DNA from: Candidatus Bathyarchaeia archaeon
Lineage (GTDB): Archaea > Thermoproteota > Bathyarchaeia > Bathyarchaeales > Bathycorpusculaceae
Direction of reading: 5' to 3'
NCBI GenBank assembly: GCA_049521795.1
Contig: JBEKOM010000005.1
Span: forward strand, 1-64,000
DNA length: 64,000 nt
Positions 162 through 48,916 of the stretch are shown piece by piece (positions within the stretch are counted from its first letter, which is position 1; each line of letters begins with the position of its first letter). The notes under the pieces are model-generated. The model did no database searches. It was given only the letters and a program-made list of their open reading frames with translations, and was not told the DNA's origin. The position numbers and the translations under genes are program-made.

Positions 162-189
162 GTTTTGCGGAAAAGTTATACTGAAATGA
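162..189 (+). repeat. Degenerate copy of ~28-bp intergenic palindrome (site A)
   Basis: GTTTTGCGGAA-AAGTTA-TACTGAAATGA; left arm and spacer match site G; 16 nt after GNAT stop. Confidence 0.45.
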
Positions 190-246
190 AAAGACATTAT
201 CGTGCGGAATCCTAAGAATTCCCTTGAGATAGTTGTGTGATGGCAA

Positions 247-1056
247 ATGGAGAAACCAATTCCAGTAGCATTTGAGAGCAACGGTGCGAATATCCACGGA
301 ATCTTCTATCAAGCCTCTGGAGTCGAACCATTGCCAACAGTCATCCTTTGTCACGGGTTTCCTGGAGATGAAGGAGACGTGTTTGGTCTTGGTGACAGAT
401 TGATGAAAGAGGGGTTCAATGCTCTTGCTTTCAATTATCGTGGCTCTTGGGGAAGCGAAGGATTGTTCAAGGATGCGAATTCCTTAGAGGATGTAATCTC
501 GGCTATTCGTTACGTGAAATCCAGTTTTGTCATTAAAGAATTCAATGTGGACTCGTCACGTATTGTCCTTATTGGATATAGTTATGGTGGTGGCATGGCT
601 CTGTTGGGCTCATTGAGTGACGCCGCCGTTAGAAAAGTAGTTGACATTGCTGGAGGTAATCTTGGCGAAGCGGGAAGAATGATGAAACAGAGTGATGAAT
701 TCAGACGGGCGATTGAGAGAAGCATAGAGGAAGGTGCTACCAGCTCAAGTTTGAGAGTGAGTCCTAAGGAAATCATCGCAGAATTGCTTGCAGACTTGGA
801 CAAGTTCGACTTGGTCAAGCACGCTGAGGAAATATCAAGTAAGGATATTTTGATAATTGGTGGATGGCGTGACCAAGAAGCGGACATAGAACATCACATA
901 TTGCCTCTTATCAGAGCATTGCAGAGGCATGGAGCCAACCAAGTGCAAATAGAAATCTTTGACTCAGATCACTCGTTTACTAATGTTAGGAGTCAATTGG
1001 CAGACAGAATTGTATCCTGGTTGAAGAGAACCCCACCTGACAAAACAGCTAGATAA
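247..1056 (+). CDS. Alpha/beta-fold hydrolase
   Basis: HGFPG oxyanion motif, GYSYG nucleophile elbow, C-terminal DHSF His. Confidence 0.9.
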   Translation: MEKPIPVAFESNGANIHGIFYQASGVEPLPTVILCHGFPGDEGDVFGLGDRLMKEGFNALAFNYRGSWGSEGLFKDANSLEDVISAIRYVKSSFVIKEFNVDSSRIVLIGYSYGGGMALLGSLSDAAVRKVVDIAGGNLGEAGRMMKQSDEFRRAIERSIEEGATSSSLRVSPKEIIAELLADLDKFDLVKHAEEISSKDILIIGGWRDQEADIEHHILPLIRALQRHGANQVQIEIFDSDHSFTNVRSQLADRIVSWLKRTPPDKTAR

Positions 1057-1501
1057 AACCTCATTAGTTGGCAATAGAAGTTTTCTCTATCAGTCCTTTT
1101 AAGCCAGTCTGACCTATCTGATAATAGAAGAAAACGGTCATGTGAAGACGGACTTCGGGAGATATCGCCACTGCGGTTTTGGTCCAAGCTGGACGACGAC
1201 CCTCTACGATGATTTTGGCAGCTTCTTCATGATCTGCATGTCGCCGTGAAACTGTCTTCATAAGAATGCAGTAGCAGGTTTTGTTTGCCGTTCTTATGTT
1301 TACAAAGCGAAAAGCAGCCAGGTACTCATTCAGAAGGAGACATACGTGAGAATCATGCTATTTTCTTGACACAGCACATATGCGCGACGATTTCTTGATT
1401 TTGGGTCACGATTGAGTGTTCATAAGTTTTTTACTACTCGTGGACAGGTTGAAGTAAGTGTTCAATGTCCCGGGGTGCCTTCGAACACAGAAGATGGTTA
1501 G

Positions 1502-4500
1502 ATGAATGAGCATGCTGTCGAGTCCTCAGTGGAAATCGCACTTGATTTGAACGAGAAGAAACCGATAAGGGTCTTGCATGTTGACGATGAGCTTGGCTTT
1601 TTGAAAGTAGCCAAACAGTGCTTAGAAATGCAAGGTCGATTTCAAGTTGACACGGCATCGTCTGCTGAAGAAGCCATGGAAAAAGTGAAGAAAGAAAAGT
1701 ATGATGCTATTGTCTGTGACTATCAGATGCCAGGAGAAGATGGTCTGCAGTTCCTGAAAGAGCTGCGAGAGAAAGGCTGCAGTATTCCGTTTATCATGTT
1801 CACTGGCAAAGGCCGGGAAGAGGTTGCTATAAAGGCACTGAACTTGGGCGCGGATCAATACTTGAACAAGTCCGGCGAACCTGAGGCAGTTTATGCTGAA
1901 TTGGCGCACAGCGTAAGACAAGCTGTGGAAAGAAGAAACGCCGTGGAAATGCTCAAGGAGTCGGAAGAAAAGTACAAGGGGCTGGTTGAGAACTCGAAAG
2001 AGTCCATCGTCATCATCGATTTGAAAGGAAACGTGTTGTTTGCCAACAAAGCAACGGAGAAATTGACAGGCTACACCGAAAGAACAGCTCCAATGAACGT
2101 GAGGCAAATCACCCCTATGAAGTACTGGCCTAAAAGCTTTGCAATGTTGAGGAAAGCAAAGAAGGGAGAACAGGTTCCCAACTTTGAGTCTGTGATAAGA
2201 AGAAAGGATGGCAACCTCATTCCAGTCGAGTCTTGGGGTCAGGCCATCTTTAAAGATGGAAAAGTCGTGGGCATACAAATCATCACGAGGGATATTTCCG
2301 ACCGTAAAGAGAGGGAGACTGAACTTGAGGAGTCAGAGAAGAAATACCGAGAATTGGCTGATCAATTGCCACTGATCGTGTATGAGATCGATGACAAAGG
2401 AAGATTCACGTTCGTCAATGAGACTGGTTTTGAGCTTACTGGATATTCCCGTAAGGATCTTGAGAAAGGTTTGAACATCCTTCAAATGGTTGCTGGCGAA
2501 GATCGAGACAAGGCCGAAGCACGCATTCAAAGGATGTTGAGCGGAGAAAAAACAGGTTACGATGAATACACAGTGATCAATAAGGACGGTAGCACGTTCC
2601 CTGCTATGGTCTGTGGCAGTGCTATTGTGCGTGAAGGCAAGATAGTAGGCTTGAGGGGCACTGTCATAGACATCACAGACCGCAAGAAAGCAGAGAAGTC
2701 ACTGCAGAAAACTGAAGAAAGGTTCAGGACTTTGATGGAGGAAGCTCCAATAGGCATATGCAATACCGATCTCAAGGGAAAAATCACTTATGTCAACAAG
2801 CGATTCGAAGAAGCCACAGGCTATTCGCGTGAGGAAATCGTCGGCAAGAATGGTTTTGAGATTGGCATTATGTCCGACGAGACATTGAAGTCACTCGCGA
2901 AACGATTGAGAGGGAGATTAATCGGGAAACCTAGTCGCGTTTTAGATGGTCAGTTCAAGCGCAAAGACGGAGAATGGATATGGGCGGAAGTAGAGGGCAG
3001 ATTAATCAAGAAGTTCGGTGTTCCAGTCGGCTTCCAACTCACTACAAGAGATATTACTGAACGAAAGAGAGCGGAAGAAGAAAGGAAACGTTATGAGGAA
3101 AAGCTTTCAGCGTTGAACACCTACAGTCGGGACCTAAACATGGCAGAGAGCAGGCAAGAAATATATCGCTTAACCTTGGACGCCATGCAGAAGGTTCTGG
3201 GATTTGAGTACGCAGACTTTATGATGATCGATAAGAACATGCTTTACATAGCGGATAAACGTGGGTATCCAGAACCTTTTCAACTTGAGTTGCCGCTGGA
3301 CGGTAGCAAGAAGGGCATAACTATCAAGGTGGCAAAGACTGGCAATTCCATTATCGCTCAAGATGTAAGAAAGAATGCAGACTTCGTCAAAGGACTCCCT
3401 GGCATACTTTCCGAACTCGCCGTACCAATCAAAGTTGGGCAAAAAACCCTCGGAGTACTAAACGTAGAAAGCGAAGAATTGAACGGTTTTGACGAAAAAG
3501 ATCAGGAGCTGCTTGAAATTCTAGCGTCACACGCCGCCACCGCGATAAGCAACTTGGAGTATTCTAAGAATTTGGAAGCGTATGCGCGGGAAATTCTAGA
3601 GAGCCAACAGAGGTTTGAGCGGCTTTTCATGGATAATCCTGAGGCAGCGGTGCACTTGGATTCGAGCTTTCACATTTTGAATGTCAACCCACGTTTCATG
3701 AGGCTTTTCGGCAACTCTTTAGATGAAATTAAGGGGAAACACATCAACGATGTCATAGTGCCAAAGGATAGGATGGAAGAAGCAGTTGTCTTCGATGAAA
3801 GAGCTAGCAAAGGGGAGATTTATCATGAAGACACTGTTAGAAAGAGAAAAGATGGAAGTTTAGTTACAGTTGCTTTTTCTGCCGCTCCCATAATCGTCGA
3901 AAACCAAGTTATAGGTCACATAGCGGTGTACAAAGACATTTCTCAGCTGAAGAAAGCCGAAGAGGAATTGAAAGAGACATTAGAAAAGCTGGCGAAAACG
4001 AATGAGAAGTTGCGTGTCGTTGGCGGATTGGCTAGACATGACGTTCGAAACAAGCTCAGTGCAATTACGGGCAATGTTTACCTGGCAAAAAAGAAGTTGG
4101 CTAGCAACAGCGAAGTTCTGAATAATCTGAAAGAGATGGAATTAGCTATTGGACAGATTGTAAGAATTTTCGACTTCACCAAGACTTACGAAATGATAGG
4201 CATTGAAGAATTGCGATACACAGAGGTGGAGAAAACGATTGACGAGGCAGTTTCGCTCTTTTCAGACTTGAAGGACGTAAGGATGATTAACAACTGCCGC
4301 GGATTGACGGTTCTGGCGGATTCCTTGCTAGGGCAGCTGTTCTATAATCTTGTCGACAACTCGTTGAAGTACGGTGAAAAGATAAAGACGATCAACGTGT
4401 ACTATGAAGAGATAGAGAAGGACACGCTGAAATTGGTCTACGAGGACGATGGCGTAGGCATATCTGAGTCAGAAAAGAAGAAACTTTTCCAAGAAGGCTA

Positions 4501-4681
4501 CGGAAGAGGCACTGGATACGGTCTATACTCGATAAGGAAGATATGTGAAGGCTACGGTTGGAACATCGAGGAAACGGGTAAGGAGGGCGAAGGAGCCCAA
4601 TTCACCATAGCTATACCAAGAATTGGTGAAAAAAGAGAAACAAACTACAGCATAAGCTCGCCTGAGAGCCAAGCAAACTAA
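1502..4681 (+). CDS. Hybrid sensor histidine kinase REC-PAS(x3)-GAF-PAS-HisK/HATPase
   Basis: VLHVDD/CDYQMP receiver, repeated PAS ends (DITDRKKAE), GAF SELAVP...ASHAATA, H-box HDVRNKL, DDGVGI and GTGYGL boxes. Confidence 0.95.
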   Translation: MNEHAVESSVEIALDLNEKKPIRVLHVDDELGFLKVAKQCLEMQGRFQVDTASSAEEAMEKVKKEKYDAIVCDYQMPGEDGLQFLKELREKGCSIPFIMFTGKGREEVAIKALNLGADQYLNKSGEPEAVYAELAHSVRQAVERRNAVEMLKESEEKYKGLVENSKESIVIIDLKGNVLFANKATEKLTGYTERTAPMNVRQITPMKYWPKSFAMLRKAKKGEQVPNFESVIRRKDGNLIPVESWGQAIFKDGKVVGIQIITRDISDRKERETELEESEKKYRELADQLPLIVYEIDDKGRFTFVNETGFELTGYSRKDLEKGLNILQMVAGEDRDKAEARIQRMLSGEKTGYDEYTVINKDGSTFPAMVCGSAIVREGKIVGLRGTVIDITDRKKAEKSLQKTEERFRTLMEEAPIGICNTDLKGKITYVNKRFEEATGYSREEIVGKNGFEIGIMSDETLKSLAKRLRGRLIGKPSRVLDGQFKRKDGEWIWAEVEGRLIKKFGVPVGFQLTTRDITERKRAEEERKRYEEKLSALNTYSRDLNMAESRQEIYRLTLDAMQKVLGFEYADFMMIDKNMLYIADKRGYPEPFQLELPLDGSKKGITIKVAKTGNSIIAQDVRKNADFVKGLPGILSELAVPIKVGQKTLGVLNVESEELNGFDEKDQELLEILASHAATAISNLEYSKNLEAYAREILESQQRFERLFMDNPEAAVHLDSSFHILNVNPRFMRLFGNSLDEIKGKHINDVIVPKDRMEEAVVFDERASKGEIYHEDTVRKRKDGSLVTVAFSAAPIIVENQVIGHIAVYKDISQLKKAEEELKETLEKLAKTNEKLRVVGGLARHDVRNKLSAITGNVYLAKKKLASNSEVLNNLKEMELAIGQIVRIFDFTKTYEMIGIEELRYTEVEKTIDEAVSLFSDLKDVRMINNCRGLTVLADSLLGQLFYNLVDNSLKYGEKIKTINVYYEEIEKDTLKLVYEDDGVGISESEKKKLFQEGYGRGTGYGLYSIRKICEGYGWNIEETGKEGEGAQFTIAIPRIGEKRETNYSISSPESQAN

Positions 4682-4874
4682 AGTGTACAGGACCATTCCG
4701 TTATCAACAAACGATTTTTCAAGCCCAGCGCACTAGCTCGGTTACGCCGGAGTTAACTATTTTCTGCGTTTCACCACTCAGCCCAGTGTCGCTTGGCAAT
4801 TCGTTAACCGGCATCAAAGGGCTGTTTTTCCATGCAAATCGGTGAATATCTTATGAGGAACCTCGGTCAACCTT

Positions 4875-6155
4875 GTGCGGTGTCTGAGCTTGGGAAAGGA
4901 TGAGTCGAGAGGCCGCCTCCGCCGTGGGCGAAGGTTTCAACGGTTTTCACGTGTGTTTTCGAAGGCAGGTCTCTCTGGATTATCTTCTCAGGTTTACATC
5001 TTGGTTTTTCTGGGCTTCCTCTTCTCGCTTGGGAGGAATATTGCTTTTTCTTATCTTGCCGTGTTCTTGGCTGGGAAAACTCTGAGCGGCGGATTAGCAT
5101 TTGACCCTTCGCTTGTCGGTCTGATGCTGACGATAGGCGGGCTTGCAAATACTTTCGCTCTTCCGATGGCAGGTCACCTGTGTGACAGGTTTGGGAGAAA
5201 GAGAATGATGCTGTTCTCACTCATTCCGCAGATTGCGCTGACCGTTGGCTTCGCGTACGTTCGCGCTTATGCAGAGTTCCTGTTACTGTACACGGCTCTG
5301 GCGATCGTGATGGCGCTTTACCAACCCGCGCACAGCGCGATGATCGCAGACTTGGTTGAGCCGGAGAAAAGAGAGCATGCTTACGGTTTTGACTACATGA
5401 TAGGCAACGTCGGCTTCATGGTCGGACTGCCCGTCGGAGGCTTGATCGCAAGCACAAGCGGATTCTCTGTGCTCTACTTCTACTGCGCTGTTCTTGTGGG
5501 TGCAGCGGCAGCTGGCGTCAGCTTGCTGATCAGAGAATCAAAGCCTGAACAGGGCTCTAATGCACCCTCAATCGCTGTTGCTTCAGTATTCCGGAACAAG
5601 GTTTTCATGCTATTCTGCCTCATGATGTTCTTCACGAACTTCCTCTACGCGCAGTTCTACAGCCTGCTCTCCGTCTACACCGAACACCTCGGCTTCGAAC
5701 CTTACGTCTTTGGCACTCTCTCCTCGATAGCCGGCGCCATGGTTGTAACACTTCAAGTCCCCATCAGGCTGAGCACAGTGCGCATAGGTCCCGCAAAAGC
5801 CTTCATAATCGCTCAGACGCTCTTTGCCACCGGATTCACCTGCTTCATGTTTGCATCGAACTTCATCGAATTCTTGGCAGCCATTGCCGTTCTGACGCTT
5901 GGGGAAATAACCTTCTACCCGGCGGCTTCGGCTTTTGCAGCTAATCTTGCACCCGCAGATATGTTGGGCAGATACATTGCCGTGATGGGACTGTTCTCAG
6001 GAATAGGAGGTTCAACGGCTTCAGTCGCAGTCTTTAGCATTTACGGAATGTTGGTCAACAAAGCCACCGTGTGGGGCATATGGGGAGCCCTCGGGTTTGC
6101 GGCTCTTCCAGGCTATTTTCTGCTGTCTAAAGTCACTAAGAACCACAAGAAGTAG
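4875..6155 (+). CDS. MFS transporter (true start probably downstream, near 4953)
   Basis: Motif A GHLCDRFGRKR, ~12 hydrophobic segments. Confidence 0.9.
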   Translation: MRCLSLGKDESRGRLRRGRRFQRFSRVFSKAGLSGLSSQVYILVFLGFLFSLGRNIAFSYLAVFLAGKTLSGGLAFDPSLVGLMLTIGGLANTFALPMAGHLCDRFGRKRMMLFSLIPQIALTVGFAYVRAYAEFLLLYTALAIVMALYQPAHSAMIADLVEPEKREHAYGFDYMIGNVGFMVGLPVGGLIASTSGFSVLYFYCAVLVGAAAAGVSLLIRESKPEQGSNAPSIAVASVFRNKVFMLFCLMMFFTNFLYAQFYSLLSVYTEHLGFEPYVFGTLSSIAGAMVVTLQVPIRLSTVRIGPAKAFIIAQTLFATGFTCFMFASNFIEFLAAIAVLTLGEITFYPAASAFAANLAPADMLGRYIAVMGLFSGIGGSTASVAVFSIYGMLVNKATVWGIWGALGFAALPGYFLLSKVTKNHKK

Positions 6156-6423
6156 TAGCGTAGACTGCGGTGGTTCCGAAGCGGGTAGACTTCTGTTTGG
6201 ATACTCTTTGCTTACACCAGATGTCTACTTCTGCCGAGTTTGCAACCAACACGCCAATGTCAGCTCTAATGAAGACAGAACCTGAGAGAGAGCGTCGATC
6301 ATGCGTCCCATTTTCGTGGCCTAAGCTGTTCTTTCTCTTCATCACTGTGCTTCTGAACTCTTCAAACATCTTAAGAGCAACGTGTACGATTACAACGTTT
6401 CTATTGCCTGTCAGGTGGGCATC

Positions 6424-7017
6424 ATGTCTCGTGTCAGATTGAAAAGAGAAGCTGGAAACAAGGTTGATTTGGGAACCAAGATAGCCTCATACCCAATGCC
6501 CGTGGTGCTGGTTGGGGCGAACGTGAATGGGAAAGCAAACTTCTTGCCGATAGCATGGTTTATGGAGGCGGCGCGCAGCCCCCCGAAGGTAGCAGTTGCG
6601 CTGAATAAGGCGCATTACACGAACCTGGGCATAAAGGAGAACAAGACGTTCAGCATCTGCATACCTTCAGAGGACATGGTGAAAGCCACTGATTACTGCG
6701 GATTAGTCTCCGGATCCAAAGCGGACAAGTCAGGGGTTTTCAAAGTTTTCTACGGCAAGTTGAAGACTGCCCCATTGATAACAGAGTGCCCTGTGAACAT
6801 TGAGTGCAGCCTCGACAAGGTTGTGGACACCGGCTCAAACGAGCTTTTCATCGGGGACATCGTGTCCACGTACACGGAAGAAAAGTACCTGACAGATGGA
6901 GCTGTTGACTTGAAAAAGACCAAGCCGTTCATGCTATCGCTGAACGACCACCAATATCATGTGCTGGGCAAACCCAAAGCAAAAGCTTGGAACGTAGGCA
7001 AAAACTACGAGCCGTGA
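6424..7017 (+). CDS. Flavin reductase-like (DIM6/NTAB family) protein
   Basis: PMPVVLVG, DYCGLVSG, APLITECPVNIEC, LFIGDIV motifs; start uncertain. Confidence 0.9.
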   Translation: MSRVRLKREAGNKVDLGTKIASYPMPVVLVGANVNGKANFLPIAWFMEAARSPPKVAVALNKAHYTNLGIKENKTFSICIPSEDMVKATDYCGLVSGSKADKSGVFKVFYGKLKTAPLITECPVNIECSLDKVVDTGSNELFIGDIVSTYTEEKYLTDGAVDLKKTKPFMLSLNDHQYHVLGKPKAKAWNVGKNYEP

Positions 7018-7039
7018 AAACTGTGGAAAGCGTGCGGGC

Positions 7040-7502
7040 CTATCGACGCTTTTTAGGTCTCTTTTTCGCCATGTTCAATTCGAGGAAGACTTCCCCCATT
7101 GTCCATTTGCCCATGAACTGCTTAAAACCGTGTCTTTCATAGAGTCGCCGTGCGTCAGGACTTGCTGTAGATGTCTCGATTCCGACTGCTCCCTTCCTCA
7201 CAGCATCGTCTATTGCTCTGTCAAGAAGAAGAGAGCCGATTCTCTGATTACGGAATTCTAGCGCTAGATAGAAGCACGTGGTGAAAGCGTTTAAACCACC
7301 ATCAACCACGTCTTCATGCATTACGCAGTGAAAAACCTACAACCGTGCCTTTTCGGTCAGCCACAAGTAATTCCTTGTTTTCCACGGCCCGTGTGATTGA
7401 CAGCTCTCTAGGAACTTTCCAATCTAGCCACTCTGCTATGGACTTGCTAATGGTTGAGATGTCCTTCTTGGTTGCCTGACGGATTCTGATTGTCTTCAGC
7501 AA
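7040..7502 (-). pseudogene. Frameshifted GNAT acetyltransferase
   Basis: N-half IRQATKKD...VVGF (7314-7502) and C-half ...FRNQRIGSLLL...ARRLYERHGF (7040-7321) lie in different frames joined at a T5 run (~7331-7335). Confidence 0.8.
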
Positions 7503-7601
7503 GCTGCATTGTAACCTCCCTCAACGACCATTCTACGCTGTCTGGCCACAAATGGGTTTTCTTCCACTGAGTAATGTGTGCAGGAAGTTTTGTTGTAGGC
7601 T

Positions 7602-7629
7602 GGTCTGGGGTGAAGTTACATCCCAAACC
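7602..7629 (+). repeat. 28-bp imperfect palindrome (site B)
   Basis: GGTCTGGGGTG-AAGTTA-CATCCCAAACC; 25/28 identical to site C. Confidence 0.9.
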
Positions 7630-7679
7630 CAAAAGAAGATACATGGAAGTGAGAGAAACTTGGCGTGCGCTAACGGAAT

Positions 7680-8318
7680 TCACCCATCTTTCAGATGGTT
7701 TGGTCCTTTTTGCAATCGTCCGATCCAGAATACAGCGATTGGTACAAGCCACAGATAGAATCGTAACGGAACATTCTGGATTCTCCATTGCCAGAATTGA
7801 GGAACCATCGTCAAAAGGAAAAGAAGAGTTGACACAAACATGATGTTTCTGACTCTTCTGTACGGTTCCACGAGTTCTGCAGCGATGAGCTGTTTTTCTT
7901 CCAAGGCCAGTTCATGGACGAAGAAGGCCAAAATGAACACTAGAGCCGCCATGTCTGCCGCGAAAAAAACGGAAGCATATTCTACGACCACTGTCTCGTT
8001 CGCGCGCCCAAACAACGTGACAAGGTTGAACAGGTAGGGCACAAGAGAAACCGAGAACAACATTGCCACGTTAAGCATATTGGTTGTCGTATTCTCCAGT
8101 GGAAGCACAGACATGATGCCTGTGTAACGTATCCAAACAGAAATCAAAATGAGAAAACTAAAAGTGAACGACAGCAAATCGCTTGCAAGATTTGTTAAAG
8201 TCGCTGGCGGCCTCGTCAACAGCGAGTAAGCGCTCAGCGACAAAGCCAGACCAAATATCAAATCTGACAAACTCTCAATCCTTGGCCGCGGACTAGACTG
8301 CCCATTTTTATCGGACAC
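7680..8318 (-). CDS. TMEM175 (DUF1211) family potassium channel
   Basis: RIESLSDLIFGLALSL (RxxxFSD-like signature), about 6 TM segments. Confidence 0.85.
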   Translation of the reverse strand: MSDKNGQSSPRPRIESLSDLIFGLALSLSAYSLLTRPPATLTNLASDLLSFTFSFLILISVWIRYTGIMSVLPLENTTTNMLNVAMLFSVSLVPYLFNLVTLFGRANETVVVEYASVFFAADMAALVFILAFFVHELALEEKQLIAAELVEPYRRVRNIMFVSTLLFLLTMVPQFWQWRIQNVPLRFYLWLVPIAVFWIGRLQKGPNHLKDG

Positions 8319-8433
8319 GTAAATTCAACTCACCTTCCAAATTCTGGAGCTTAGGCTAAAAAGACTTTGCGCGCGTTAACTGTGAGTGCGTGTGTAAGAG
8401 AGTATGTGATTGAGATAGATCGTAAAATATTAC

Positions 8434-8461
8434 GGTTTGGGGTAAAGTTGCATCCCAAACC
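8434..8461 (+). repeat. 28-bp imperfect palindrome (site C)
   Basis: GGTTTGGGGTA-AAGTTG-CATCCCAAACC; arms GGTTTGGG/CCCAAACC perfectly inverted. Confidence 0.9.
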
Positions 8462-8519
8462 TCATTAATAGTTCGCATTTACATTGATTAAGAAAGGTGC
8501 TGAGAGAAGAGTTAAGGAA

Positions 8520-8729
8520 ATGACTAAACAAACGAGTCAAGAGAAATTTGTCAGCAGAAGATGGCTAACCCTTCTCGGAATCATGGGCATCGTAGGGCTA
8601 ATACTTCTTGCTTTTGGAGTATTCTCAATATTCGAGATATCCACACTTCTAGGTGTAATCTTATTGGTTGTAGGAGTCTTCGTATACTTAGTGTTTATTC
8701 TCATAGAAAGAAAGTTGAAGCTCCTCTAG
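8520..8729 (+). CDS. Small two-TM hypothetical membrane protein
   Basis: ORF with two clear hydrophobic helices and a basic C-terminus. Confidence 0.7.
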   Translation: MTKQTSQEKFVSRRWLTLLGIMGIVGLILLAFGVFSIFEISTLLGVILLVVGVFVYLVFILIERKLKLL

Positions 8730-8757
8730 AAGGTTCACCTTTAAAAATCAATTATTT

Positions 8758-9390
8758 CTAATCAGTATACGCGCGTGTTTTTCTTGAAGGTTTCTGTCTT
8801 CTTGCCTGTTCCTTCTTGGTGCTAGTGTTTGTTTGGAGGTTGGCGGCCATTCTTGAGAATGTTATAGGTTGATAGTGCCCCTTGTAATTCAAGTCCATCA
8901 GAAAGCCGTCGATGTCCTCAGTGTTCATGTAGGCCTTCATCTTAGAACTGGCAGCTTCCTTCATGTCTTTCATGTATGTAGAATAGTCTCCGTAGTCCTT
9001 GTGGAAAGAGATGACCACAAGCTGCTTTCCAAGACCGATTCCGTCCATGACTAAGAGGTATGGGCGACGTTCTTCGTTGTCCAATTCACGCGCTGCTCTG
9101 TGTAACTCCTCAAGTTCATCAGGAGAAATAGCCTTCAGTTTAAACATGATGATTGCCATCAGATTGAAACCTAACTTGCGGAAATCAGGGATCACGGTGT
9201 ATTCTTTGATGACGCCCTCTTTCTGAAGTCTGGCTATTAACCTACTGACCGTGGGTTGCGAGACCCCTAACACTTTTGCCAGTTCTCTATCACTCCTGCG
9301 GCTGTTCTTCATAAGCTCAGCAACAAGCCGTACATCAAGATCCTTCAACAGATTGCCTCCAATATTCGACGTGTAGAAAGCATATTTCAA
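8758..9390 (-). CDS. Lrp/AsnC-family transcriptional regulator (start probably ~9351)
   Basis: LMKNSRRSDRELAKVLGVSQPTVSR HTH; GVIKEYTVIPDFRKLG. Confidence 0.9.
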   Translation of the reverse strand: MKYAFYTSNIGGNLLKDLDVRLVAELMKNSRRSDRELAKVLGVSQPTVSRLIARLQKEGVIKEYTVIPDFRKLGFNLMAIIMFKLKAISPDELEELHRAARELDNEERRPYLLVMDGIGLGKQLVVISFHKDYGDYSTYMKDMKEAASSKMKAYMNTEDIDGFLMDLNYKGHYQPITFSRMAANLQTNTSTKKEQARRQKPSRKTRAYTD

Positions 9391-9572
9391 TTGCCCACAC
9401 TAAAAGCTTTAGGGCCGCACCCAAAAGTCCCTAAACATTCTCCTAAACCTCAAGAAATGTCTAGTCTTGCTATTCCGTTTCCAGGGTTTTGGACCGATGG
9501 TGGACACCTGAAAGCAAAATAAAGCAGTTACCCGTTCAATTCAGCTATAGCCTCTCTGCAACTTCACTGTTG

Positions 9573-9602
9573 CTTTGGGGGTAAAGTCACATCCAACCAA
9601 AC
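9573..9602 (+). repeat. Copy of ~28-bp palindrome (site D)
   Basis: CTTTGGGGGTA-AAGTCA-CATCCAACCAA(AC); 12-14 nt past the stop of the minus-strand ORF ending at 9615. Confidence 0.8.
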
Positions 9603-9614
9603 TCTGAACAGAAA

Positions 9615-9911
9615 TCAAATGATTCTACGAAGACGCTTCTCATCTTCCCCAAGGCGTCTTTCGACACCTTCAACTGCCTTCACTATCTTACTCGGCGTTT
9701 TACATCTTTCCTTTTTCCTCTTTCCAGCTGGTTTCTTGACTTTCTCTTTCAGCTTTCTCCTTTGTCTTCTGTTCTCTTCCTCTCTTTTCTGCCGCTGTCT
9801 AATCCAGTCATAAACGTAACCGGTCTCCGCGCCCGGAGGCAATCCTCCTCTCTGCAAAAGCCCACAACCACTATTCCTCTTTCTTGAAAAGACATATAAA
9901 CGTGGCTCCAA
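9615..9911 (-). CDS. Small basic hypothetical protein (start uncertain)
   Basis: ORF with GGLPPGAETGYVYDW followed by a K/R/E-rich helix; purine-rich coding strand. Confidence 0.5.
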   Translation of the reverse strand: MEPRLYVFSRKRNSGCGLLQRGGLPPGAETGYVYDWIRQRQKREEENRRQRRKLKEKVKKPAGKRKKERCKTPSKIVKAVEGVERRLGEDEKRLRRII

Positions 9912-10253
9912 CGGTTACACTCAGAAGCGATTTTTGGTTAGCGTGTAATGAACATCTGGCTTCTATGTGTGCGCGCTGCAAAACGTATATGCAAAAGGTA
10001 TAAGCGACAGAATAAGCATCTGCACAAAACTGAATGACTCGCTCACGGTCTGCTTTTTCAACGACAACATCAACATGATCAAGAGCGAAGCAAGCGTACG
10101 CTAGGCAACGGAGTCTCTGGCACACCCGCGTTTCCATGAACTGCGACGTGTGGAAAGCTGGTTCATATTTCAACTTCACAAATGACATATCTCACCTAAG
10201 CCGCGACTTTAAGGTTGCAGCGAAGCGGACGAAAAAGGGCACGGTGATCGATT

Positions 10254-10706
10254 CTGTTAACCAGCATCCTCATCGTTGACGATGACGCCGGAGTGAGAAC
10301 CATGCTCTCAACGGTCCTCAACGACGAGGGATACCTGACTGAAGCAGTGGAAAATGGCAAGAAGGCAGTCAAGGCCTGCGAAGAATCCTCTTTCGACGTC
10401 GCCCTCATAGACATCGAACTCCCAGACATGAAAGGCACAGAACTTCTCAACAAATTAAAGAAAATACAACCGAAAATGATCAGGATAATTATCACGGGAC
10501 ACCCCAGCCTCGAAAGCGCCATGAAGGCCGTAAACGAAAGAGCAGACGGATACGTACTGAAACCCTTCGAAGTAACAGAACTGCTGCAAAAGATAAGAAG
10601 ACTCCTGGAAGAGAAGACCAACGAGTACCTGCGCATCTCCGATGAGACCGCTCACGCAAAAGAGAGCACTCCAGTCGTCAAATACCAACGCTCAGACAGA
10701 TGGTAA
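10254..10706 (+). CDS. Stand-alone response regulator (REC), probable CTG start
   Basis: ILIVDDD, LIDIELPD, ITGHP, YVLKPF; acidic pocket lies upstream of the first canonical start (10293). Confidence 0.9.
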   Translation: MLTSILIVDDDAGVRTMLSTVLNDEGYLTEAVENGKKAVKACEESSFDVALIDIELPDMKGTELLNKLKKIQPKMIRIIITGHPSLESAMKAVNERADGYVLKPFEVTELLQKIRRLLEEKTNEYLRISDETAHAKESTPVVKYQRSDRW

Positions 10707-10918
10707 CGAACTAAAACCAAATGGACCATTTTAGGAACACGCGTACGAGCTATCGCATTGGGCTAGGCGCAAAATCAATAAGTATAGGTAAAGGCAAATT
10801 AGCGTGCGCACCATGATGGAATCTGGATTGGACTCACCAACAAAAAAACCATATCGAAAAGAGGACTCACGCTAGACGCAAGCAGATAGAACCAGCAAAG
10901 AGAGGAGTGCATACGCGT

Positions 10919-11674
10919 ATGGAATTCTTCAATTCCTATGGAGATGCTAGACGTGCAGAAGCCTACGCGAAGCTCGAGTTTCCAGGCACGTACTATTTGG
11001 CCTACAGGGATCTGCCTGAGATCATACGCGAACATGCAAGAGGGAGGAGAGCATTTGATTTTGGGTGCGGAGCTGGGCGTTCTACTCGTTTTCTGCAGAA
11101 GCTCGGACTCAACGTTGTCGGTGTTGACATTTCAGAGGACATGCTGAAGAAGGCCAGAGAGCTGGACCCAAAGGGCGATTATCGCCTAATCGAAGAAGGC
11201 AACTTAGGCCAGTTTGAGGACGATGCCTATGACCTTGTGCTGTCCGCGTTCACGTTCGACAACGTTCCCACCATGGAAAAAAAGGTGAGGAATTTCAGAG
11301 AGCTTGGACGTCTGCTGAAGACTGAAGGGGTCCTAGTTAATCTGGTCTCGTCACCTGAGATCTACACGCACGAGTGGGCCTCTTTTTCGACGAAGGACTT
11401 TCCAGAAAACAAACGTGCGAAGAGCGGAGACAAAGTGAGAATAATCCAAACAGACCTCGACGATAAGAGGCCGGTGGAGGATGTTGTCTGGACGGACGAG
11501 TCTTACCGAGAAACCTACAGGAGGGCCGGGCTTGAATTGATCAAGACCTACAAACCGTTGGCAAAGAAGAATGAGCCATACGAATGGGTCAACGAAACGA
11601 GGGTCGCGCCATGGGTCATCTATGTACTGAGAAAACAAGAGACGCACTCCTGCCGAGGCGAGCGCCCTTCTTAG
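10919..11674 (+). CDS. Class I SAM-dependent methyltransferase
   Basis: FDFGCGAG motif I, GVDISEDML. Confidence 0.9.
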   Translation: MEFFNSYGDARRAEAYAKLEFPGTYYLAYRDLPEIIREHARGRRAFDFGCGAGRSTRFLQKLGLNVVGVDISEDMLKKARELDPKGDYRLIEEGNLGQFEDDAYDLVLSAFTFDNVPTMEKKVRNFRELGRLLKTEGVLVNLVSSPEIYTHEWASFSTKDFPENKRAKSGDKVRIIQTDLDDKRPVEDVVWTDESYRETYRRAGLELIKTYKPLAKKNEPYEWVNETRVAPWVIYVLRKQETHSCRGERPS

Positions 11675-11736
11675 GGATGGTTAATAACGTTGACAGAGAC
11701 CTACAATGCTCATTGAACATAAGGAGGTAGCGAGTT

Positions 11737-12309
11737 ATGGTCGCAGATCTGGAGTTTCGTCCGCTCACCTCTGAAACGTGGCAAGATCTTCAGACGCTTT
11801 TTGAAAGGGACAGGGTGTGTCGCGCTTGTTGGTGCATGTGGTGGAGGCTCTCGGCAACAGAATGGATGAAGCAGAGAGGCAAAGAGAACAGAGAAGCCAT
11901 GGAAGCAACAGTGAAATCTGGAAAAGTTGCCGGCATACTGGCTTATTCCGATGACAAACCGATCGGCTGGTGCTCGATATCGCCCAGAGAGGAATATCCT
12001 AGGTTGGAAAGATCCAGAGCTCTCAAGAGAATCGATGACAAACCAGTGTGGTCCGTTGTGTGCTTCTTCGTGGCCAAACCTTTCAGAGGACACGGTGTAG
12101 CAACCAGACTGCTCGAGGCCGCTGTCGTCTACGCTGGAAAACGGGGAGCCACGATCGTAGAAGGTTATCCGAACAGGTCAAACAAGATGCAGCAAGACTC
12201 GCTTGTTTACACTGGCATTATGTCTTCGTTTGAGAAGGTCGGGTTTGTTGAAGTTCAGAACAGTTCCAAGACCAAGGCAACCATGCGGTACGTGTTTGGA
12301 GGCAAGTAG
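11737..12309 (+). CDS. GNAT N-acetyltransferase (CWCMWW type)
   Basis: CWCMWWR, IGWCSISPRE, VVCFFVAKPFRGHGVA, VEGYP; SD GGAGGT upstream. Confidence 0.9.
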   Translation: MVADLEFRPLTSETWQDLQTLFERDRVCRACWCMWWRLSATEWMKQRGKENREAMEATVKSGKVAGILAYSDDKPIGWCSISPREEYPRLERSRALKRIDDKPVWSVVCFFVAKPFRGHGVATRLLEAAVVYAGKRGATIVEGYPNRSNKMQQDSLVYTGIMSSFEKVGFVEVQNSSKTKATMRYVFGGK

Positions 12310-12465
12310 CGACAATGTCTCATCGGCTTTAGCAGAAAAGGAGATGGTTGAGAGGGACATCTTCGTGAGCTATGCGTCGACAACCAGCACGCTGGTCTCT
12401 TGAAACAATGCCTCGTTTTCCATGGCGTTTTGGCACGCTCTCCACTGGGCTCAATCACGACTGTT

Positions 12466-13392
12466 TCAAGCTAGGAATAGAATGGCAACGCCGATGATGG
12501 CAACGAATGCCCCTAGTATGCCGCGCCGGCTGGTCCTTTCTCTGTAGATTATCCACACCACCGGGATGATGAGGATGGGCATCAAGGACATCAATGTCTG
12601 CGCAATGCCTGTCTGAGTGTCGGCTACAGCGACCATGGACAGCGTCATGCCTATGAACGGTCCGACCACTGCACCCGCAGCAGTGTACTTGATTCCCACC
12701 TTGTCCTTAACGGCGCGTCGTAGGTCCGACCGTTTTCCCGCGAAGAGGGCAATTGTCCAAATGAACACGCCGGCCAGCATCATCCGTATCAACGCTGCGG
12801 ACACAGGATTCATCGCCACGCTCGTGTCGAGGTACATTCCCTTCTTTGAGAGGACAAGGCCGAACCCTTGGCCCATCGCCGAAACCAAACCGAAAAGTAC
12901 TCCCCAAGCCTTGCGGTTCTTTGCTTCAAGCTTCTCTTCCGACGTTTCTTCCTGCTCCAGCAGGACCACAATGATACCTGTCAACGTGACCGCTATTCCA
13001 AGGATAGACAACAGTGACAGCGGCTCTTCCAACATCCAGTACGCGCCTAACGATGCAAATATCGGCGCTGAAGACTGAATGAGGACTGAACGTCGCGGAC
13101 CGATCGTAACGTACGCTGCAAACAACCCGAAATCACCGATGCCAAGCCCAACGATCCCGCTTAGACCCATCCAGAACCATTGCCCGCTGCTCGCAAGAGG
13201 AAGAAGAGTACCCAACAAGACGACATGCGCAAGAATCAGAAGGCCAATGGCCATTATCGTGCGATACGCGTTGACACTGAATGAACCGAACCTTCTGCCG
13301 GCCGATGTGAAAAGGATACAGCTGCACGTCCAGAAGCATGATGTGAGAATCGCGGCTGACTCTCCTATGAGACTTGAGTCCAAATTCCTCAC
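12466..13392 (-). CDS. DMT/EamA family transporter
   Basis: About 10 TM segments, GLGIGD and two-repeat EamA pattern; start taken at GTG 13392 or TTG 13383 instead of the ORF-track 13560. Confidence 0.9.
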   Translation of the reverse strand: MRNLDSSLIGESAAILTSCFWTCSCILFTSAGRRFGSFSVNAYRTIMAIGLLILAHVVLLGTLLPLASSGQWFWMGLSGIVGLGIGDFGLFAAYVTIGPRRSVLIQSSAPIFASLGAYWMLEEPLSLLSILGIAVTLTGIIVVLLEQEETSEEKLEAKNRKAWGVLFGLVSAMGQGFGLVLSKKGMYLDTSVAMNPVSAALIRMMLAGVFIWTIALFAGKRSDLRRAVKDKVGIKYTAAGAVVGPFIGMTLSMVAVADTQTGIAQTLMSLMPILIIPVVWIIYRERTSRRGILGAFVAIIGVAILFLA

Positions 13393-13605
13393 TGTTAGAT
13401 TAGGGCATGACAGCTCAGATAACCTTAAACCTTTCCCACAACGGGCGCGGTTAGTTTGAACAAGGACCGCGAGAACGCACCGTTTTGCAGATGATGATGT
13501 GCCATGTTTCGGAGACGAAGACCACGTGCAGCGGACATTGCGGTTGTTCTTTTCAATCATCTCATAGAATAGAAGGCACAGGTTTGACAGGCTCAGAAGC
13601 TCGCT

Positions 13606-14349: not shown

Positions 14350-14410
14350 TGTTTCTGTTACGTTCGCGAGTGTCTCCCCCTTTTTCTAATGAGCAGTTGT
14401 TAGAAAACGC

Positions 14411-14442: not shown

Positions 14443-14463
14443 TAAAAAAAGAGCCGATCCCAC

Positions 14464-44209: not shown

Positions 44210-44210
44210 C

Positions 44211-44957
44211 ATGAAAAACGTTCACGTTGGAACTATGGGCTGGAGCTACGGCTTCTGGGTTGGAAACTTCTATCCTAGAGGCCTTAGGCCGAGCGAGTTT
44301 TTGGCCCAGTACTCGAAGCATTTTGGAACGGTGGAAGTGAACAACACGTTCTACAGAGTTCCCAGCGAAAGCACTCTCTTGAAATGGAGGGAACAGACGC
44401 CCGAAGGTTTTCTGTTCTCCGCGAAGTTCCCCCAAGTCATAACGCACAGGAAAATGCTGAAAAACTGCGAGTCTGAAACGCAGTTTTTCATCGAAAGAAT
44501 CTCCGTTCTACAAGAAAAGGTTGGGGCCCTTCTTTTACAGTTTCCACCCGCGTTTGGACCGAAAGAAGCCACTCTTCTGGGAGATTTTCTAACCATGCTG
44601 CCGAAGAAGTACAGGTACGCCGTGGAAGTAAGAAACAAGAAATTGCTTGGCGACAAGCTCTTCTCTCTTCTGAAAGAGAACGGAGTCGCCCTCGCCATAA
44701 ATCCTCTCATGCCCGAGACAGAGCAGATCACAACTGACTTTGCCTACATAAGATGGGAAGGAGACAGGAGAAAAGTGAACGGCGCACTTGGAAAGCTAGA
44801 GGTCGATAGGACAGACGACATCAAAAAGTGGGCAACGAGGATCAGCAAATTCCTCGGCGAAACAAAAGAAGTATTTGGATATTTCAGTAAATACTATTCG
44901 GGTCATCCTCCTACAGACGCAAGACAATTCGTCGAATTGCTCGGCCTAGTCAGCTGA
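44211..44957 (+). CDS. DUF72 (UPF0759) protein
   Basis: VGTMGWSY, VEVNNTFY, LLQFPP, AVEVR, YIRWEG. Confidence 0.93.
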   Translation: MKNVHVGTMGWSYGFWVGNFYPRGLRPSEFLAQYSKHFGTVEVNNTFYRVPSESTLLKWREQTPEGFLFSAKFPQVITHRKMLKNCESETQFFIERISVLQEKVGALLLQFPPAFGPKEATLLGDFLTMLPKKYRYAVEVRNKKLLGDKLFSLLKENGVALAINPLMPETEQITTDFAYIRWEGDRRKVNGALGKLEVDRTDDIKKWATRISKFLGETKEVFGYFSKYYSGHPPTDARQFVELLGLVS

Positions 44958-45030
44958 AAATGAAGGGATTCGCGTATCCAAAGTGCTTTATAATGCAGCA
45001 GAACCATTCTAGCCCCAAGGAGGTTGATGC

Positions 45031-45393
45031 ATGCCAAGAGTTATCCACTTTGAAATTAATGCAGACGACCCAAAGAGAGCCGTAGAGTTCTACGAAAAGG
45101 TGTTCGGCTGGAAGATTAACAAATGGGAAGGACCCGCCGAGTATTGGCTTGTCAGCACTGGCGATGAGAAAGAGCCCGGCATCGGCGGAGCAATCATGGA
45201 ACGGATGGACAAAGCAACGACGGTCAACACGATAGACGTACCGTCAGTCGACGAGTACGTTAAGAAGGTCGTGAAGGCTGGTGGAAAACAGGTGAGCAAG
45301 AAGAACACGATTCCGGGCATCGGCTATTTTGCATACTGCGCGGACACCGAGGGAAACGTCTTCGGAGTTATGGAACCAAACCCCAGAGCATAG
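45031..45393 (+). CDS. VOC/glyoxalase family protein
   Basis: IHFEINADDPKRAVEFY, DTEGNVFG. Confidence 0.93.
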   Translation: MPRVIHFEINADDPKRAVEFYEKVFGWKINKWEGPAEYWLVSTGDEKEPGIGGAIMERMDKATTVNTIDVPSVDEYVKKVVKAGGKQVSKKNTIPGIGYFAYCADTEGNVFGVMEPNPRA

Positions 45394-45405
45394 ACTCAAT
45401 TTTAG

Positions 45406-45432
45406 TTTTAGGGATGCAGTTTACCCCAAATC
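45406..45432 (-). repeat. Copy of ~28-bp palindrome (site E, inverted, spacer 1 nt shorter)
   Basis: Reverse complement GATTTGGGGTA-AACTG-CATCCCTAAAA; 12 nt after the VOC stop. Confidence 0.85.
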
Positions 45433-45586
45433 CAATGGACGACCAAAGTAACGGTGGGTTGCCAGACCGTTTACTCTTCATCAACTCGCGCGTGCTGTCC
45501 AATCACCTAACGTCGTCAGCTTTAAATCTGTCAGGACTTGACTGCTACGTGAGTTCTGATATGCCGAGAAGGTCGTGACATTTGTT

Positions 45587-46342
45587 ATGCCAAAGAGAGA
45601 CCATGTTATGAAACAGTGGGACGACGCAGCCGAATCATGGGTTGACTTTGTAAGGAAAGGTAAGGACTATTACAGAGACGAACTTAACAACCCTGCAGCT
45701 TTCAGATTAATAGGAAACGTGAAAGGTCAAATGGTGCTGGACCTAGCCAGCGGCGAGGGATACAACGCTCGAATACTAGCTAGAAAAGGCGCCAAAGTGA
45801 CTGGAGCAGATTTTTCGGCAAAATTAGTCGAGCTTGCCAGAATCGAGGAAGCAAGAGAGAAGCTGGGCATAGACTATCATATTGCGGATGCTACTGACCT
45901 CTCAAGGTTTCCGAGCCATTATTTTGATCTCGTGACTTGTTTTATGGCTTTACAGGACATCAAGAACTACAAGAGAGCAGTGTTTGAAGTGGCAAGGGTC
46001 CTGAAAAACAGAGGCCGGCTCGTGTTTTCAATTCCTCACCCGTGTTTTGAAATGGTAGTTGACAAGAAAGGAAATAGAATAAGCGCAACAACGAGATATT
46101 TTGAAGCTGCTGAGGACCATATTCAATGGAAAATGGACAGGCTCCTGAAGCCATTCGAGACTACAAGCTTCCACAGAACATTAACTGATTATTTCAACGT
46201 GCTTAGTAAGAATAGACTTCTTGTAAAGAGTCTTGTGGAGCCACAACCCACAAAAGAAGCGATTTCAAAATATCCAACCCTCAAAGAAGTTCTTCTCAGA
46301 CCACAATCAGTGATAATGGAATCAGTTAAGATGCCAATCTGA
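45587..46342 (+). CDS. Class I SAM-dependent methyltransferase
   Basis: VLDLASGEG, FSIPHPCF, FHRTLTDY. Confidence 0.9.
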   Translation: MPKRDHVMKQWDDAAESWVDFVRKGKDYYRDELNNPAAFRLIGNVKGQMVLDLASGEGYNARILARKGAKVTGADFSAKLVELARIEEAREKLGIDYHIADATDLSRFPSHYFDLVTCFMALQDIKNYKRAVFEVARVLKNRGRLVFSIPHPCFEMVVDKKGNRISATTRYFEAAEDHIQWKMDRLLKPFETTSFHRTLTDYFNVLSKNRLLVKSLVEPQPTKEAISKYPTLKEVLLRPQSVIMESVKMPI

Positions 46343-46358
46343 GCAAACATCGTTTCTA

Positions 46359-46388
46359 GGTTTGGGGACAAGATTTTGCCCTCAAATT
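46359..46388 (+). repeat. Variant copy of the palindrome (site F)
   Basis: GGTTTGGGGACAA-GATT-TTGCCCTCAAATT; 16 nt after the MTase stop; preceded by GTTTCTA as is site A. Confidence 0.65.
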
Positions 46389-46555
46389 CTGTTCTGGGAA
46401 ATTCATGTAGACTTTGAGCTACAAGTCTTCGCGACCAGGTCGGTACTTCACTGATTTCACTTTTTCTGGGCGCAGCAGTGCTGGGACTCATTTTAACACA
46501 GAACTCCAGGATCTACTGCAGAATGATTGACGTGCATTTGCAGGCAATGGATTGA

Positions 46556-48038: not shown

Positions 48039-48327
48039 AGCAATAGTGTGCGCCCGTGGTTTTGGAGCCCAGTTCTACCCGAGACAAGTATAGATACCGA
48101 GCAAAAGACGAAATCTAGTTTCGCCTTCCTGGAGTTACTCAAAAGAGGAAGTCAGATAGCCTGGGAAAAATGATCTCTTGCCCTCCGTCCGACTACGGCG
48201 ACGTGAAGTCCGCCCAAGAAAGGACCAAAATCAGAATGCTAGGGACGAAATGTCAGCGAGACATTTACTCAGGTTATGAGAAATCTTATAAGAAAGTAAC
48301 AAAGAAGTTGAAGGAACAGGGAAACAA

Positions 48328-48798
48328 ATGAAACTGAACTATATTGGCATCGTTGGTGCAATAATAGCTTTTGTCAGCATCGCACTTCCATGGTGGACAG
48401 AGTCTGCAGGAGGGTTGAGCTACGACCTGAAGTTATATGACGCAGGAATTCTAGGTGCAACATTGAACTACTGGTACGGCTGGGTGGCCCTCCTGTTTGT
48501 CGTATTAGGCGGAGTACTAGGATTAGCGGGCAGCGTAATGTCAAACGGAAAAAGGATAGTAATGGGAGGCGGCATACTCGCATTGATTGCGATAATAATC
48601 TTTCCAGTAGGCTTTCAAATGGACCTCATGCGTTTGAACGCTACAATCAGCATATTCAATAGCGGCACTGTCTCAGCGTATCTATCCTATGGCTTCTGGT
48701 TGGCGCTCGTTGCAGCAATCATCATGCTCGTAGCCATGCGCTATCCGAAACCCACTGCTCAGGCACCATCCGCGCCACCGCCAACCCCGACAACGTAG
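48328..48798 (+). CDS. Four-TM hypothetical membrane protein
   Basis: LPWW and YGFWLAL motifs; Pro-rich tail. Confidence 0.8.
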   Translation: MKLNYIGIVGAIIAFVSIALPWWTESAGGLSYDLKLYDAGILGATLNYWYGWVALLFVVLGGVLGLAGSVMSNGKRIVMGGGILALIAIIIFPVGFQMDLMRLNATISIFNSGTVSAYLSYGFWLALVAAIIMLVAMRYPKPTAQAPSAPPPTPTT

Positions 48799-48888
48799 AA
48801 ATCCGCAGACATCAACTGACTCGTCACATTTAGTCAACCCCACTTTTTTCATGCACTCAGACGCAGAGGACAAGCTGAACGTGGGGTT

Positions 48889-48916
48889 TGTTTTGCGGAA
48901 AGTTATTTCTCAAACC
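48889..48916 (+). repeat. Degenerate copy of 28-bp palindrome (site G)
   Basis: TGTTTTGCGGA-AAGTTA-TTTCTCAAACC. Confidence 0.55.

Follow-up and report, generated by a model that had tools for sequence, protein, structure and literature searches.

Between the accessory genes of a 64,000-nucleotide stretch of Bathyarchaeia DNA (the window; contig C5:1-64000 of G000, a metagenome-assembled genome (MAG) of 2.44 Mb), a short imperfect palindrome recurs, and the question raised by this locus is whether the palindrome is a site of gene exchange or a signal of some other kind, e.g., a promoter. To our knowledge, beyond classical integrons in some metagenome-assembled genomes, little is known about the assembly and exchange of small accessory genes in archaea. 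An original prediction, made from the letters of the window, had described the palindrome as a 28-base pair (bp) element with inverted arms of 11 nucleotides (nt) around a 6-nt spacer and had suggested that, like the dif sites of Xer recombinases and the dif-flanked modules (pdif) of bacteria, it might serve a module-shuffling system. Our analysis leads us to favour, with some reserve, the reading that the copies named B, C and D and a degenerate copy, E, are junctions of a gene-cassette shuffling system that is shared with tailed viruses and in which exchange takes place inside the core of the element.

Sites B and C differ from the predicted 28-mer by 2 and 0 mismatches, respectively, and none of 100 shuffled sequences matched it. 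A scan with the 17-nt core pattern GGGGTAAAGTNNCATCC, allowing up to two mismatches, found B, C and D, all on the plus strand (3 matches, with a mean of 0.05 in shuffled sequences; none of 100 shuffles reached 3), and site E reads GATTTGGGGTAAACTGCATCCCTAAAA, i.e., the core minus one base. The four sites are as follows.

Site B, positions 7602 to 7629, plus strand: core GGGGTGAA-GT-TACATCCC, with flanks GGTCT and AAACC.
Site C, positions 8434 to 8461, plus strand: core GGGGTAAA-GT-TGCATCCC, with flanks GGTTT and AAACC.
Site D, positions 9573 to 9600, plus strand: core GGGGTAAA-GT-CACATCCA, less well conserved and directed like B and C.
Site E, positions 45406 to 45432, minus strand: degenerate core between a VOC and a methyltransferase gene unit.

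The original list of palindromes thus stands for B, C and D and, with a base missing, for E, whereas its other entries fell away: A (162) and G (48889) are copies of another repeat, TGCGGAAAAGTTATAGC, which we refer to as the class-2 word; F (46359) is probably not a member, with 5 of 17 core positions differing in our alignment; and the half-sites at 12327 and 14772 have no convincing core.

B to E are diverged members of a genus-specific family. In G000 the word GGGTAAAGTTTTATC occurs in 19 exact, 13 one-mismatch and 16 two-mismatch copies, and it is present in 10 of 10 other genomes of the genus, with 21-41 copies in the six largest (1.8-2.4 Mb); genomes from other genera of the family and order hold 0-6 copies, with 0-3 for a reversed control word. 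Copies with at most two mismatches are spread over the chromosome, 48 of them in G000 and 42 in G001, the complete genome of a sister species (mean identity to G000 of 87.5% over aligned DNA). When only the 10-mer AAAGTTTTAT was used as a seed (63 matches in G000 and G001 together), GGGGT was recovered upstream in 46-53 of the 63 and CC downstream in 48 and 41 of the 63; because seeding on the 10-mer alone recovers these outer letters, the full element can be written as GGGGTAAA-GT-TTTATCCC. This 18-bp core is quasi-palindromic, with 7 of 9 paired positions symmetric by our count.

Around the core, the left flanks are C-poor simple repeats that are G-rich on the 5' side, i.e., (GGTTT)n, (GGTT)n, (GA)n, (GT)n and (GC)n, and the right flanks are G-poor simple repeats that are C-rich on the 3' side, i.e., (CCAAA)n, (CCAA)n, (TC)n, (AC)n and (GC)n. 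Left types combine freely with right types, the flank sequence itself varies between copies, and information content is about zero beyond approximately 12 nt on either side of the core. The GGTTT...AAACC arms originally described represent one combination among the flank types. On this contig the right core arm reads RCATCC, and in site C the central layout is GGTTTGGGGTA-AAGTTG-CATCCCAAACC. Many cores are also followed by G-poor low-complexity tracts of 60-150 nt (TC-, AC- or ACG-rich; e.g., G000 C11:89580-89700 and C3:63002-63100, and window 9690-9800).

The core is concentrated in DNA that varies between related genomes. The intergenic set comprised 41 copies in G000, 40 of which could be scored for gene context, with genes called by our own hexamer-based open reading frame (ORF) caller rather than a standard gene finder (83% of G000 was marked coding). 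Segments of at least 500 bp without a homologue in G001 contained 35 of the 41 copies, as compared to 20.2 +/- 3.2 (maximum 30) among random intergenic positions (2000 draws), and the remaining 6 lie 3-23 nt from ends of homology, i.e., of high-scoring segment pairs (HSPs). In the reciprocal test, 25 of 36 G001 copies fell in such segments (null 16.0 +/- 3.0, maximum 26). The statement that all sites sit in accessory zones hence applies to the window and genome-wide.

Genes beside cores encode GNATs, metallo-beta-lactamase-fold hydrolases, VOC, DsrE, EthD, SnoaL-like, SRPBCC and lipocalin-like proteins, methyltransferases and small helix-turn-helix (HTH) regulators, and for the window Pfam confirmed the cargo that had been annotated from sequence (GNAT, S-adenosylmethionine methyltransferase, VOC/glyoxalase, alpha/beta hydrolase and TMEM175). 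Core orientation is independent of gene orientation: by our count, the 40 scorable copies comprise 14 between divergent genes, 8 between convergent genes, 10 in tandem and co-directional with the genes, and 8 in tandem and opposed, and co-directional start codons lie anywhere from 7 to 558 nt from the core. The original observation that B, D and E share one orientation relative to the gene that they follow is therefore not a rule of the family, whose copies span all four contexts. Among each other, neighbouring cores (at most two mismatches, at most 3 kb apart) form mostly direct repeats, with ratios of same to opposite orientation of 12:3 in G000 (p 0.018) and 10:1 in G001 (p 0.006), i.e., 22 same and 4 opposite in total. 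With regard to replication, an apparent polarity of the cores on the scale of the chromosome disappeared when clusters were counted once in our own count; cumulative GC skew in G001 has no clear turning point, and gene-strand bias does not track core orientation.

Gain or loss of a single unit between two cores was seen twice, once between strains and once between species. For the strain comparison, DNA runs of close strains were mapped onto window positions 3000-16000, and stretches that were left uncovered in these runs were not counted as evidence. One such run (X4) contains a contig (601 nt, depth 6.5, 98.7-99.3% alike) that covers 7166-7612 and then continues at 8445-8596, with 6 and 1 differing letters in its two parts. 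Its joint, 7612->8445 (record 27), skips 832 nt, and five letters, AAGTT, fit both sides; the hybrid site consists of the left arm of B and the right arm of C, and the TMEM175-like unit between them is absent. Depth in this run is 0.9 over the TMEM175-like gene versus about 5-6 beside it. Breakpoints at the sites had been named as a check, and here a single-gene gain or loss falls exactly on B and C, with the crossover in the 6-bp spacer. The three units next to these sites are listed below.

Positions 7038 to 7634, minus strand: unit left of B, with a GNAT fragment gene (7040-7321) and a small ORF (7314-7502), carried with B.
Positions 7613 to 8444, minus strand: single-gene unit of 832 bp, with a TMEM175-like gene (7680-8318; Pfam PF06736) and its own promoter near 8340-8375.
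Positions 8462 to 9572, both strands: unit between C and D, with a gene for a 69-aa membrane protein (8520-8729, plus) and an AsnC/MarR-type HTH gene (8758-9390, minus).

Site B is hence the left border of the polymorphic TMEM175-like unit as well as the right end of the GNAT block, and site C is the right border of the former and the left border of the next unit. In the between-species case, G000 has a single core at C6:85976 where G001 has a unit of 1014 bp between two cores; this unit comprises a tract of low complexity, a promoter of its own, a gene for a membrane or secreted protein and a GCGCGC motif, and it sits in the promoter of the signal recognition particle (SRP) RNA gene (G000 C6:85976-86331; G001 684349-685396, locus L161). 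After this insertion, the promoter-proximal core of G001 is intact and the distal copy carries three changes.

Other units are found at cores in different places. The whole block 7038-7634, including B, is inverted on contig C14 of G002 (89% identity). The 69-aa membrane protein gene (unit at window 8454-8759) occurs alone at 864 kb in G001, where homology begins at 8454 beside an exact core that is inverted relative to site C, and it also occurs beside a core on contig C21 of G002. The segment C1:552257-552689 lies between two cores in both G000 and G001, at non-syntenic places, and C1:553360-553687 adjoins the G001 core at 1263780. For the TMEM175-like gene, 17 metagenome loci were found in which only 7672-8382 is homologous (the gene together with some 55 nt of promoter); these loci have no neighbours in common with the window, and 5 of the 17 have a core within 100 nt.

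The element is present in viruses as well. An exact 17-mer was found in 11 IMG/VR contigs, 7 of which show the typical flanks, and these 7 encode capsid, portal and terminase. The viral cores flank genes for Shedu-type nucleases, TIR-domain proteins, MEDS and DUF3795. Among these IMG/VR sequences, L198/L203, L204 and L206 are contigs of tailed Bathyarchaeia viruses with core-bracketed genes of defence type, i.e., Shedu SduA_C, a TIR-domain CAP12/Pycsar-like effector and subunits of type I restriction-modification systems.

The mechanism that we propose is that the element separates small self-contained accessory units, both in variable chromosomal islands and in the tailed viruses of this lineage, with each unit consisting of a gene and its own promoter, often followed by the GCGCGC motif. 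Recombination between two cores, with the exchange at the core centre, would underlie the gain, loss, inversion and relocation of units, and it would be the normal route of unit movement. A circular unit with one core may insert into a resident core, which would give direct repeats and would also explain the freely mixed flank types. The exchange could be carried out by a dedicated recombinase or by short-homology recombination between linkers derived from promoters; that a dedicated site-specific recombinase acts at the cores is, in our judgement, rather unlikely. As a near-perfect copy of the strong promoter of the lineage (TFB recognition element (BRE) and TATA box), the core probably also binds TATA-binding protein (TBP) and transcription factor B (TFB).

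Several observations weigh against gene shuffling at the cores. The strain-level joint comes from one contig of one run, slippage or short-homology recombination would also suffice for one deletion between direct repeats of 28 bp, and under random exchange within a 28-bp repeat the chance of a crossover in the 5-nt central block is, by our own estimate, approximately 0.2. Among 150 clean indels of 200-15,000 bp between G000 and G001, only one shows cores both where the insert is missing and at each end of the insert, and 148 have no core at all. The outer borders of the 3.8-kb segment 6160-9979, which includes site D and is missing from G001, are without a core. Relatives differ in how the core is oriented toward the same gene (site C as compared to G001; site B as compared to locus L181), which a strictly directional site-specific system does not predict without extra inversions. 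Homology ends within 3 nt of the core for 6 of the 41 copies, versus 2.1 expected (p 0.011), a coincidence that lends weak support to the proposed exchange because class-2 promoters show the same (9 of 16 within 30 nt of an HSP end). The gene-context counts depend on our own hexamer ORF caller. Furthermore, the core matches a working promoter, in that the SRP RNA gene (Rfam RF01857, 157.8 bits, C6:86018-86331) is preceded by GGGCAAAGTTTTATA, which ends 27 nt upstream and is conserved in G001, and no recombinase gene was consistently adjacent to cores among the PF00589 genes of G000 and five relatives.

The SRP RNA observation bears on another possible, if less probable, explanation, namely that the core is simply a strong and perhaps bidirectional BRE/TATA promoter or an operator of recently acquired genes and viral accessory genes, with rearrangements being incidental to 30-40 near-identical repeats. 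In its letters, the core is a near copy of the strong BRE/TATA promoter of this lineage, as found before the SRP RNA gene. An archaeal promoter has a purine-rich BRE followed by a T/A-rich box some 25-30 nt ahead of the transcript start, and the core copy at the SRP RNA gene, 27 nt from the RNA, lies in this range. The upstream boxes of tRNA genes are related (AAAG..TTTAAAT type; e.g., a tRNA-Thr gene has GGGATAAGGTTTATC ending 25 nt upstream), the class-2 promoter has AAAGTT-TA in common with the core and is likewise found at homology ends, and, in our reading, both core strands are A-rich and then T-rich, which makes bidirectional initiation conceivable. The original prediction had named a link to promoters, i.e., a fixed distance to TATA boxes as for an operator, among the findings that would refute it, and the likeness to the SRP RNA promoter is a promoter link. 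In the accessory zones, however, genes have no set distance or orientation relative to the core, and convergent genes flank 8 of 40 copies. Units that adjoin cores have their own promoter nearer to the gene start. The genome has its general TATA signal most often 30-70 nt upstream of start codons, while AAAGTT is without any positional peak, for which reason we rejected the core as a general promoter. Nor does a promoter function predict arrays of direct repeats or the conserved CC(C) right after the TATA part. A hairpin at the RNA level, i.e., a transcription terminator or a stabiliser resembling repetitive extragenic palindromic (REP) sequences located after genes, seems highly improbable by comparison: several copies, including E and B, do lie 12-50 nt after stop codons, and copies flanked by GGTTT and AAACC could fold, but 14 of the 40 copies lie between divergent gene starts, many flanks are non-complementary (GA on the left; CA or TC on the right), and the T run is short, with 4 T on one and 3 T on the opposite strand. 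Moreover, the signal after stop codons in this genome is GCGCGC, which peaks 0-40 nt downstream of them, and no Rfam family matched the window. A scan of the window for tRNA genes returned no match.

Cores may alternatively be the abutted ends or the preferred targets of a non-autonomous transposon similar to a miniature inverted-repeat transposable element (MITE), with half-cores as terminal inverted repeats and insertion into the core centre, although we consider this improbable. In our reading, each unit end has a G-rich repeat and GGG(G/A)TAAA toward its 3' end, much as terminal inverted repeats do, such that head-to-head joining gives the palindrome, and the occurrence of exact copies alongside decaying ones such as B-E is in keeping with this explanation. 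However, no transposase is linked to the sites and the flanks are not conserved between copies; formally, the present data do not separate such a transposon from site-specific insertion of circles. A more specific form of the cassette explanation, which we regard as doubtful, is a recombinase-driven system of the genus and its tailed viruses in which one 18-bp word serves both for attachment and as a symmetric BRE/TATA promoter, cassettes form circles and insert at any resident core, including real promoters such as that of the SRP RNA gene, and the telomere-like G-rich simple repeats at the cassette ends are made or maintained by the insertion process. With regard to an enzyme for such a system, G000 has 10 PF00589 genes and the five relatives have 9-15. 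Only one of the G000 genes adjoins a core-like word, the perfect palindrome GGGTAAAGTTTACCC, 3 nt after the stop codon. The product of this gene and that of its paralogue, the two Xer-like proteins of G000, were dropped as candidates, as they were found among 30 relatives (threshold E <= 1e-20) only in G020 and were absent from the 10 other genus genomes searched. Their genes (C1:609372-610328 and C8:52652-53611) encode proteins that are 54% identical to each other; G020 belongs to another family of the order, and these genes are probably mobile-element-borne or contamination (MAG contamination 4.4%). No transposase family recurs near cores, where Pfam identified tyrosine-recombinase domains and a single rve_3 fragment only.

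Comparison with known systems places the element near, but not within, several of them. Archaeal and bacterial dif sites have an 11-6-11 geometry with cleavage at the spacer ends, and the 11-6-11 geometry originally proposed here fits this dif layout (PMC8371274). The likeness, i.e., 11-nt inverted arms, a 6-nt spacer and an observed crossover in the spacer, is one of geometry; for binding and cutting by XerA at the spacer ends, the one natural joint, with its exchange inside AAGTT, is the only indirect evidence. Chromosomal dif, however, is present in a single copy in the termination region, in contrast to the 48 and 42 copies over the chromosomes of G000 and G001, and no Xer protein is linked to the cores. 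With pdif modules of Acinetobacter plasmids the element shares small site-bounded modules and many sites per replicon. The two sites that bound a pdif module are inverted; in contrast, adjacent cores of this genus mostly point the same way (22:4), and the plus strand carries B, C and D alike. The original module-shuffling proposal thus survives in part: the sites are real, they lie in variable DNA and at module borders, and one indel matches them exactly, but they are direct rather than inverted, multi-copy, and not tied to a recombinase.

Integrons have an IntI-type integrase gene with an attI site next to the cassette array, and their attC sites are imperfect inverted repeats that recombine as folded single strands, in hairpins of 60 nt or more. 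The element, in contrast, is an 18-bp double-strand palindrome, often with non-complementary flanks, and its units have their own promoters, occur in both orientations and are separated by a promoter-like site, in many short arrays that are also found in viruses. No integron integrase (IntI) was found beside arrays among the PF00589 genes of G000 and five relatives, in a search that did not include an IntI-specific model, and Rfam identified only the SRP RNA in the arrays and no attC-type site, with no dedicated attC finder used. Integron cassettes, including the archaeal ones of Ghaly et al. (2022; PMC9668308), resemble the units reported here in forming arrays of small accessory genes with recurring direct sites, in being single-gene units that are present or absent between strains, and in their cargo (GNAT, VOC/glyoxalase, methyltransferases, lipocalin-like and SnoaL-like proteins, and DUFs).

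The viral copies resemble phage morons and linkers in that accessory units of tailed viruses, here with Shedu and TIR genes flanked, have short border sequences in common; they differ in that the element is equally common in the host chromosome, consists of one strict 18-bp word throughout the genus and has strand-asymmetric simple-repeat flanks. Phage morons are self-contained transcription units between core genes, and linker or boundary sequences at the borders of mosaic modules have been proposed to guide recombination. Short intergenic inverted repeats that mark strain-variable gene content are also found in bacteria, e.g., the dRS3 and Correia repeats and minimal mobile elements of Neisseria and the REP sequences and bacterial interspersed mosaic elements (BIME) of enterobacteria. 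The dRS3/Correia and REP/BIME repeats likewise occur in dozens or more of intergenic inverted-repeat copies where gene content differs, but they reach much higher numbers, also occur outside variable DNA and are unlike the stable-RNA promoters of their hosts. REP- and MITE-type repeats have a conserved unit that extends past the palindrome and a linked transposase (RAYT or other), whereas conservation here is lost within about 12 nt of the core and no transposase is linked to it. Our literature search found no description of this element, which does not prove that it is unpublished.

On the favoured reading, one strict word marks nearly all junctions of optional genes across a genus of peat and sediment Bathyarchaeia and, in the viruses of these archaea, accessory genes for defence. 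Should units move by recombination at this word, it would define a route of gene exchange between host and virus and would provide a simple marker for flexible genes in uncultured archaea along with a candidate pair of site and enzyme for genetic tools. If the word is only a promoter, it would be an unusually uniform one, with strand-asymmetric flanks prone to non-B DNA, and would give a concrete reason to study transcription in archaea and genome instability driven by repeats.

In the window, the sites of this family fall in two variable zones.

Variable zone 1, positions 6160 to 9979: contains sites B, C and D.
Variable zone 2, positions 44945 to 46548: contains the VOC gene, site E, the methyltransferase gene and site F.

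The syntenic place of zone 1 holds about 150 bp of other sequence in G001 and other content in G002, and zone 2 is replaced by 4.5 kb (G001) and 3.1 kb (G002) of other DNA, with exact cores in both replacements. For the VOC gene beside E, synteny was seen in G008 alone, and in G009 the methyltransferase gene is found elsewhere. One low-complexity tract of the window differs in length by 71 nt in run X4 (joint 9689->9761).

The class-2 word TGCGGAAAAGTTATAGC has 16 copies in G000, for all of which (16/16) we read a candidate start codon 35-65 nt downstream. It appears to be an ordinary promoter type, and site A, located 64 nt upstream of the hydrolase gene at 247, is predicted to serve that gene. 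The word can also be written (GGT)TTTGCGGAAAAGTTATAGCTGAACC, with window copies at 162-189 (A) and 48885-48916 (G); it precedes accessory genes, many of them for RimJ-like GNATs, and it often has a core less than about 300 nt away and frequently lies close to the end of a contig. The G001 orthologue of G reads more like the right half of the core, which suggests that the two classes of words are related.

Further repeats were noted in the window and elsewhere in the genome. Positions 49244-49420 are a copy of a dispersed repeat that belongs to families of approximately 170-210 nt, which have dozens of copies per genome with 73-90% identity in G000, G001, G002 and G010 (other G000 copies are at C1:546650-546848, C1:547327-547538 and C1:551120-551300); the window copy has no Rfam family match, and these repeats could be MITEs or an undescribed RNA. 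The GCGCGC motif is also common upstream of promoters and may be a terminator-linked or Z-DNA-prone boundary signal. The most intergenic-enriched family of 8-mers is (A/T)AGCGCGCGCT(A), and GCGCGCGC occurs 361 times in G000, 289 of them intergenic, with window examples at 8368-8377, 8769-8776 and 9973-9980. Finally, a 13-nt tandem unit, GCAAAACGTATAT, with 2-3 repeats, is found upstream of regions reading gcgaatttagggacaagcc (7 copies in G000); its array at window 9977-10005, which may be an operator or promoter array, is the exact right border of zone 1.

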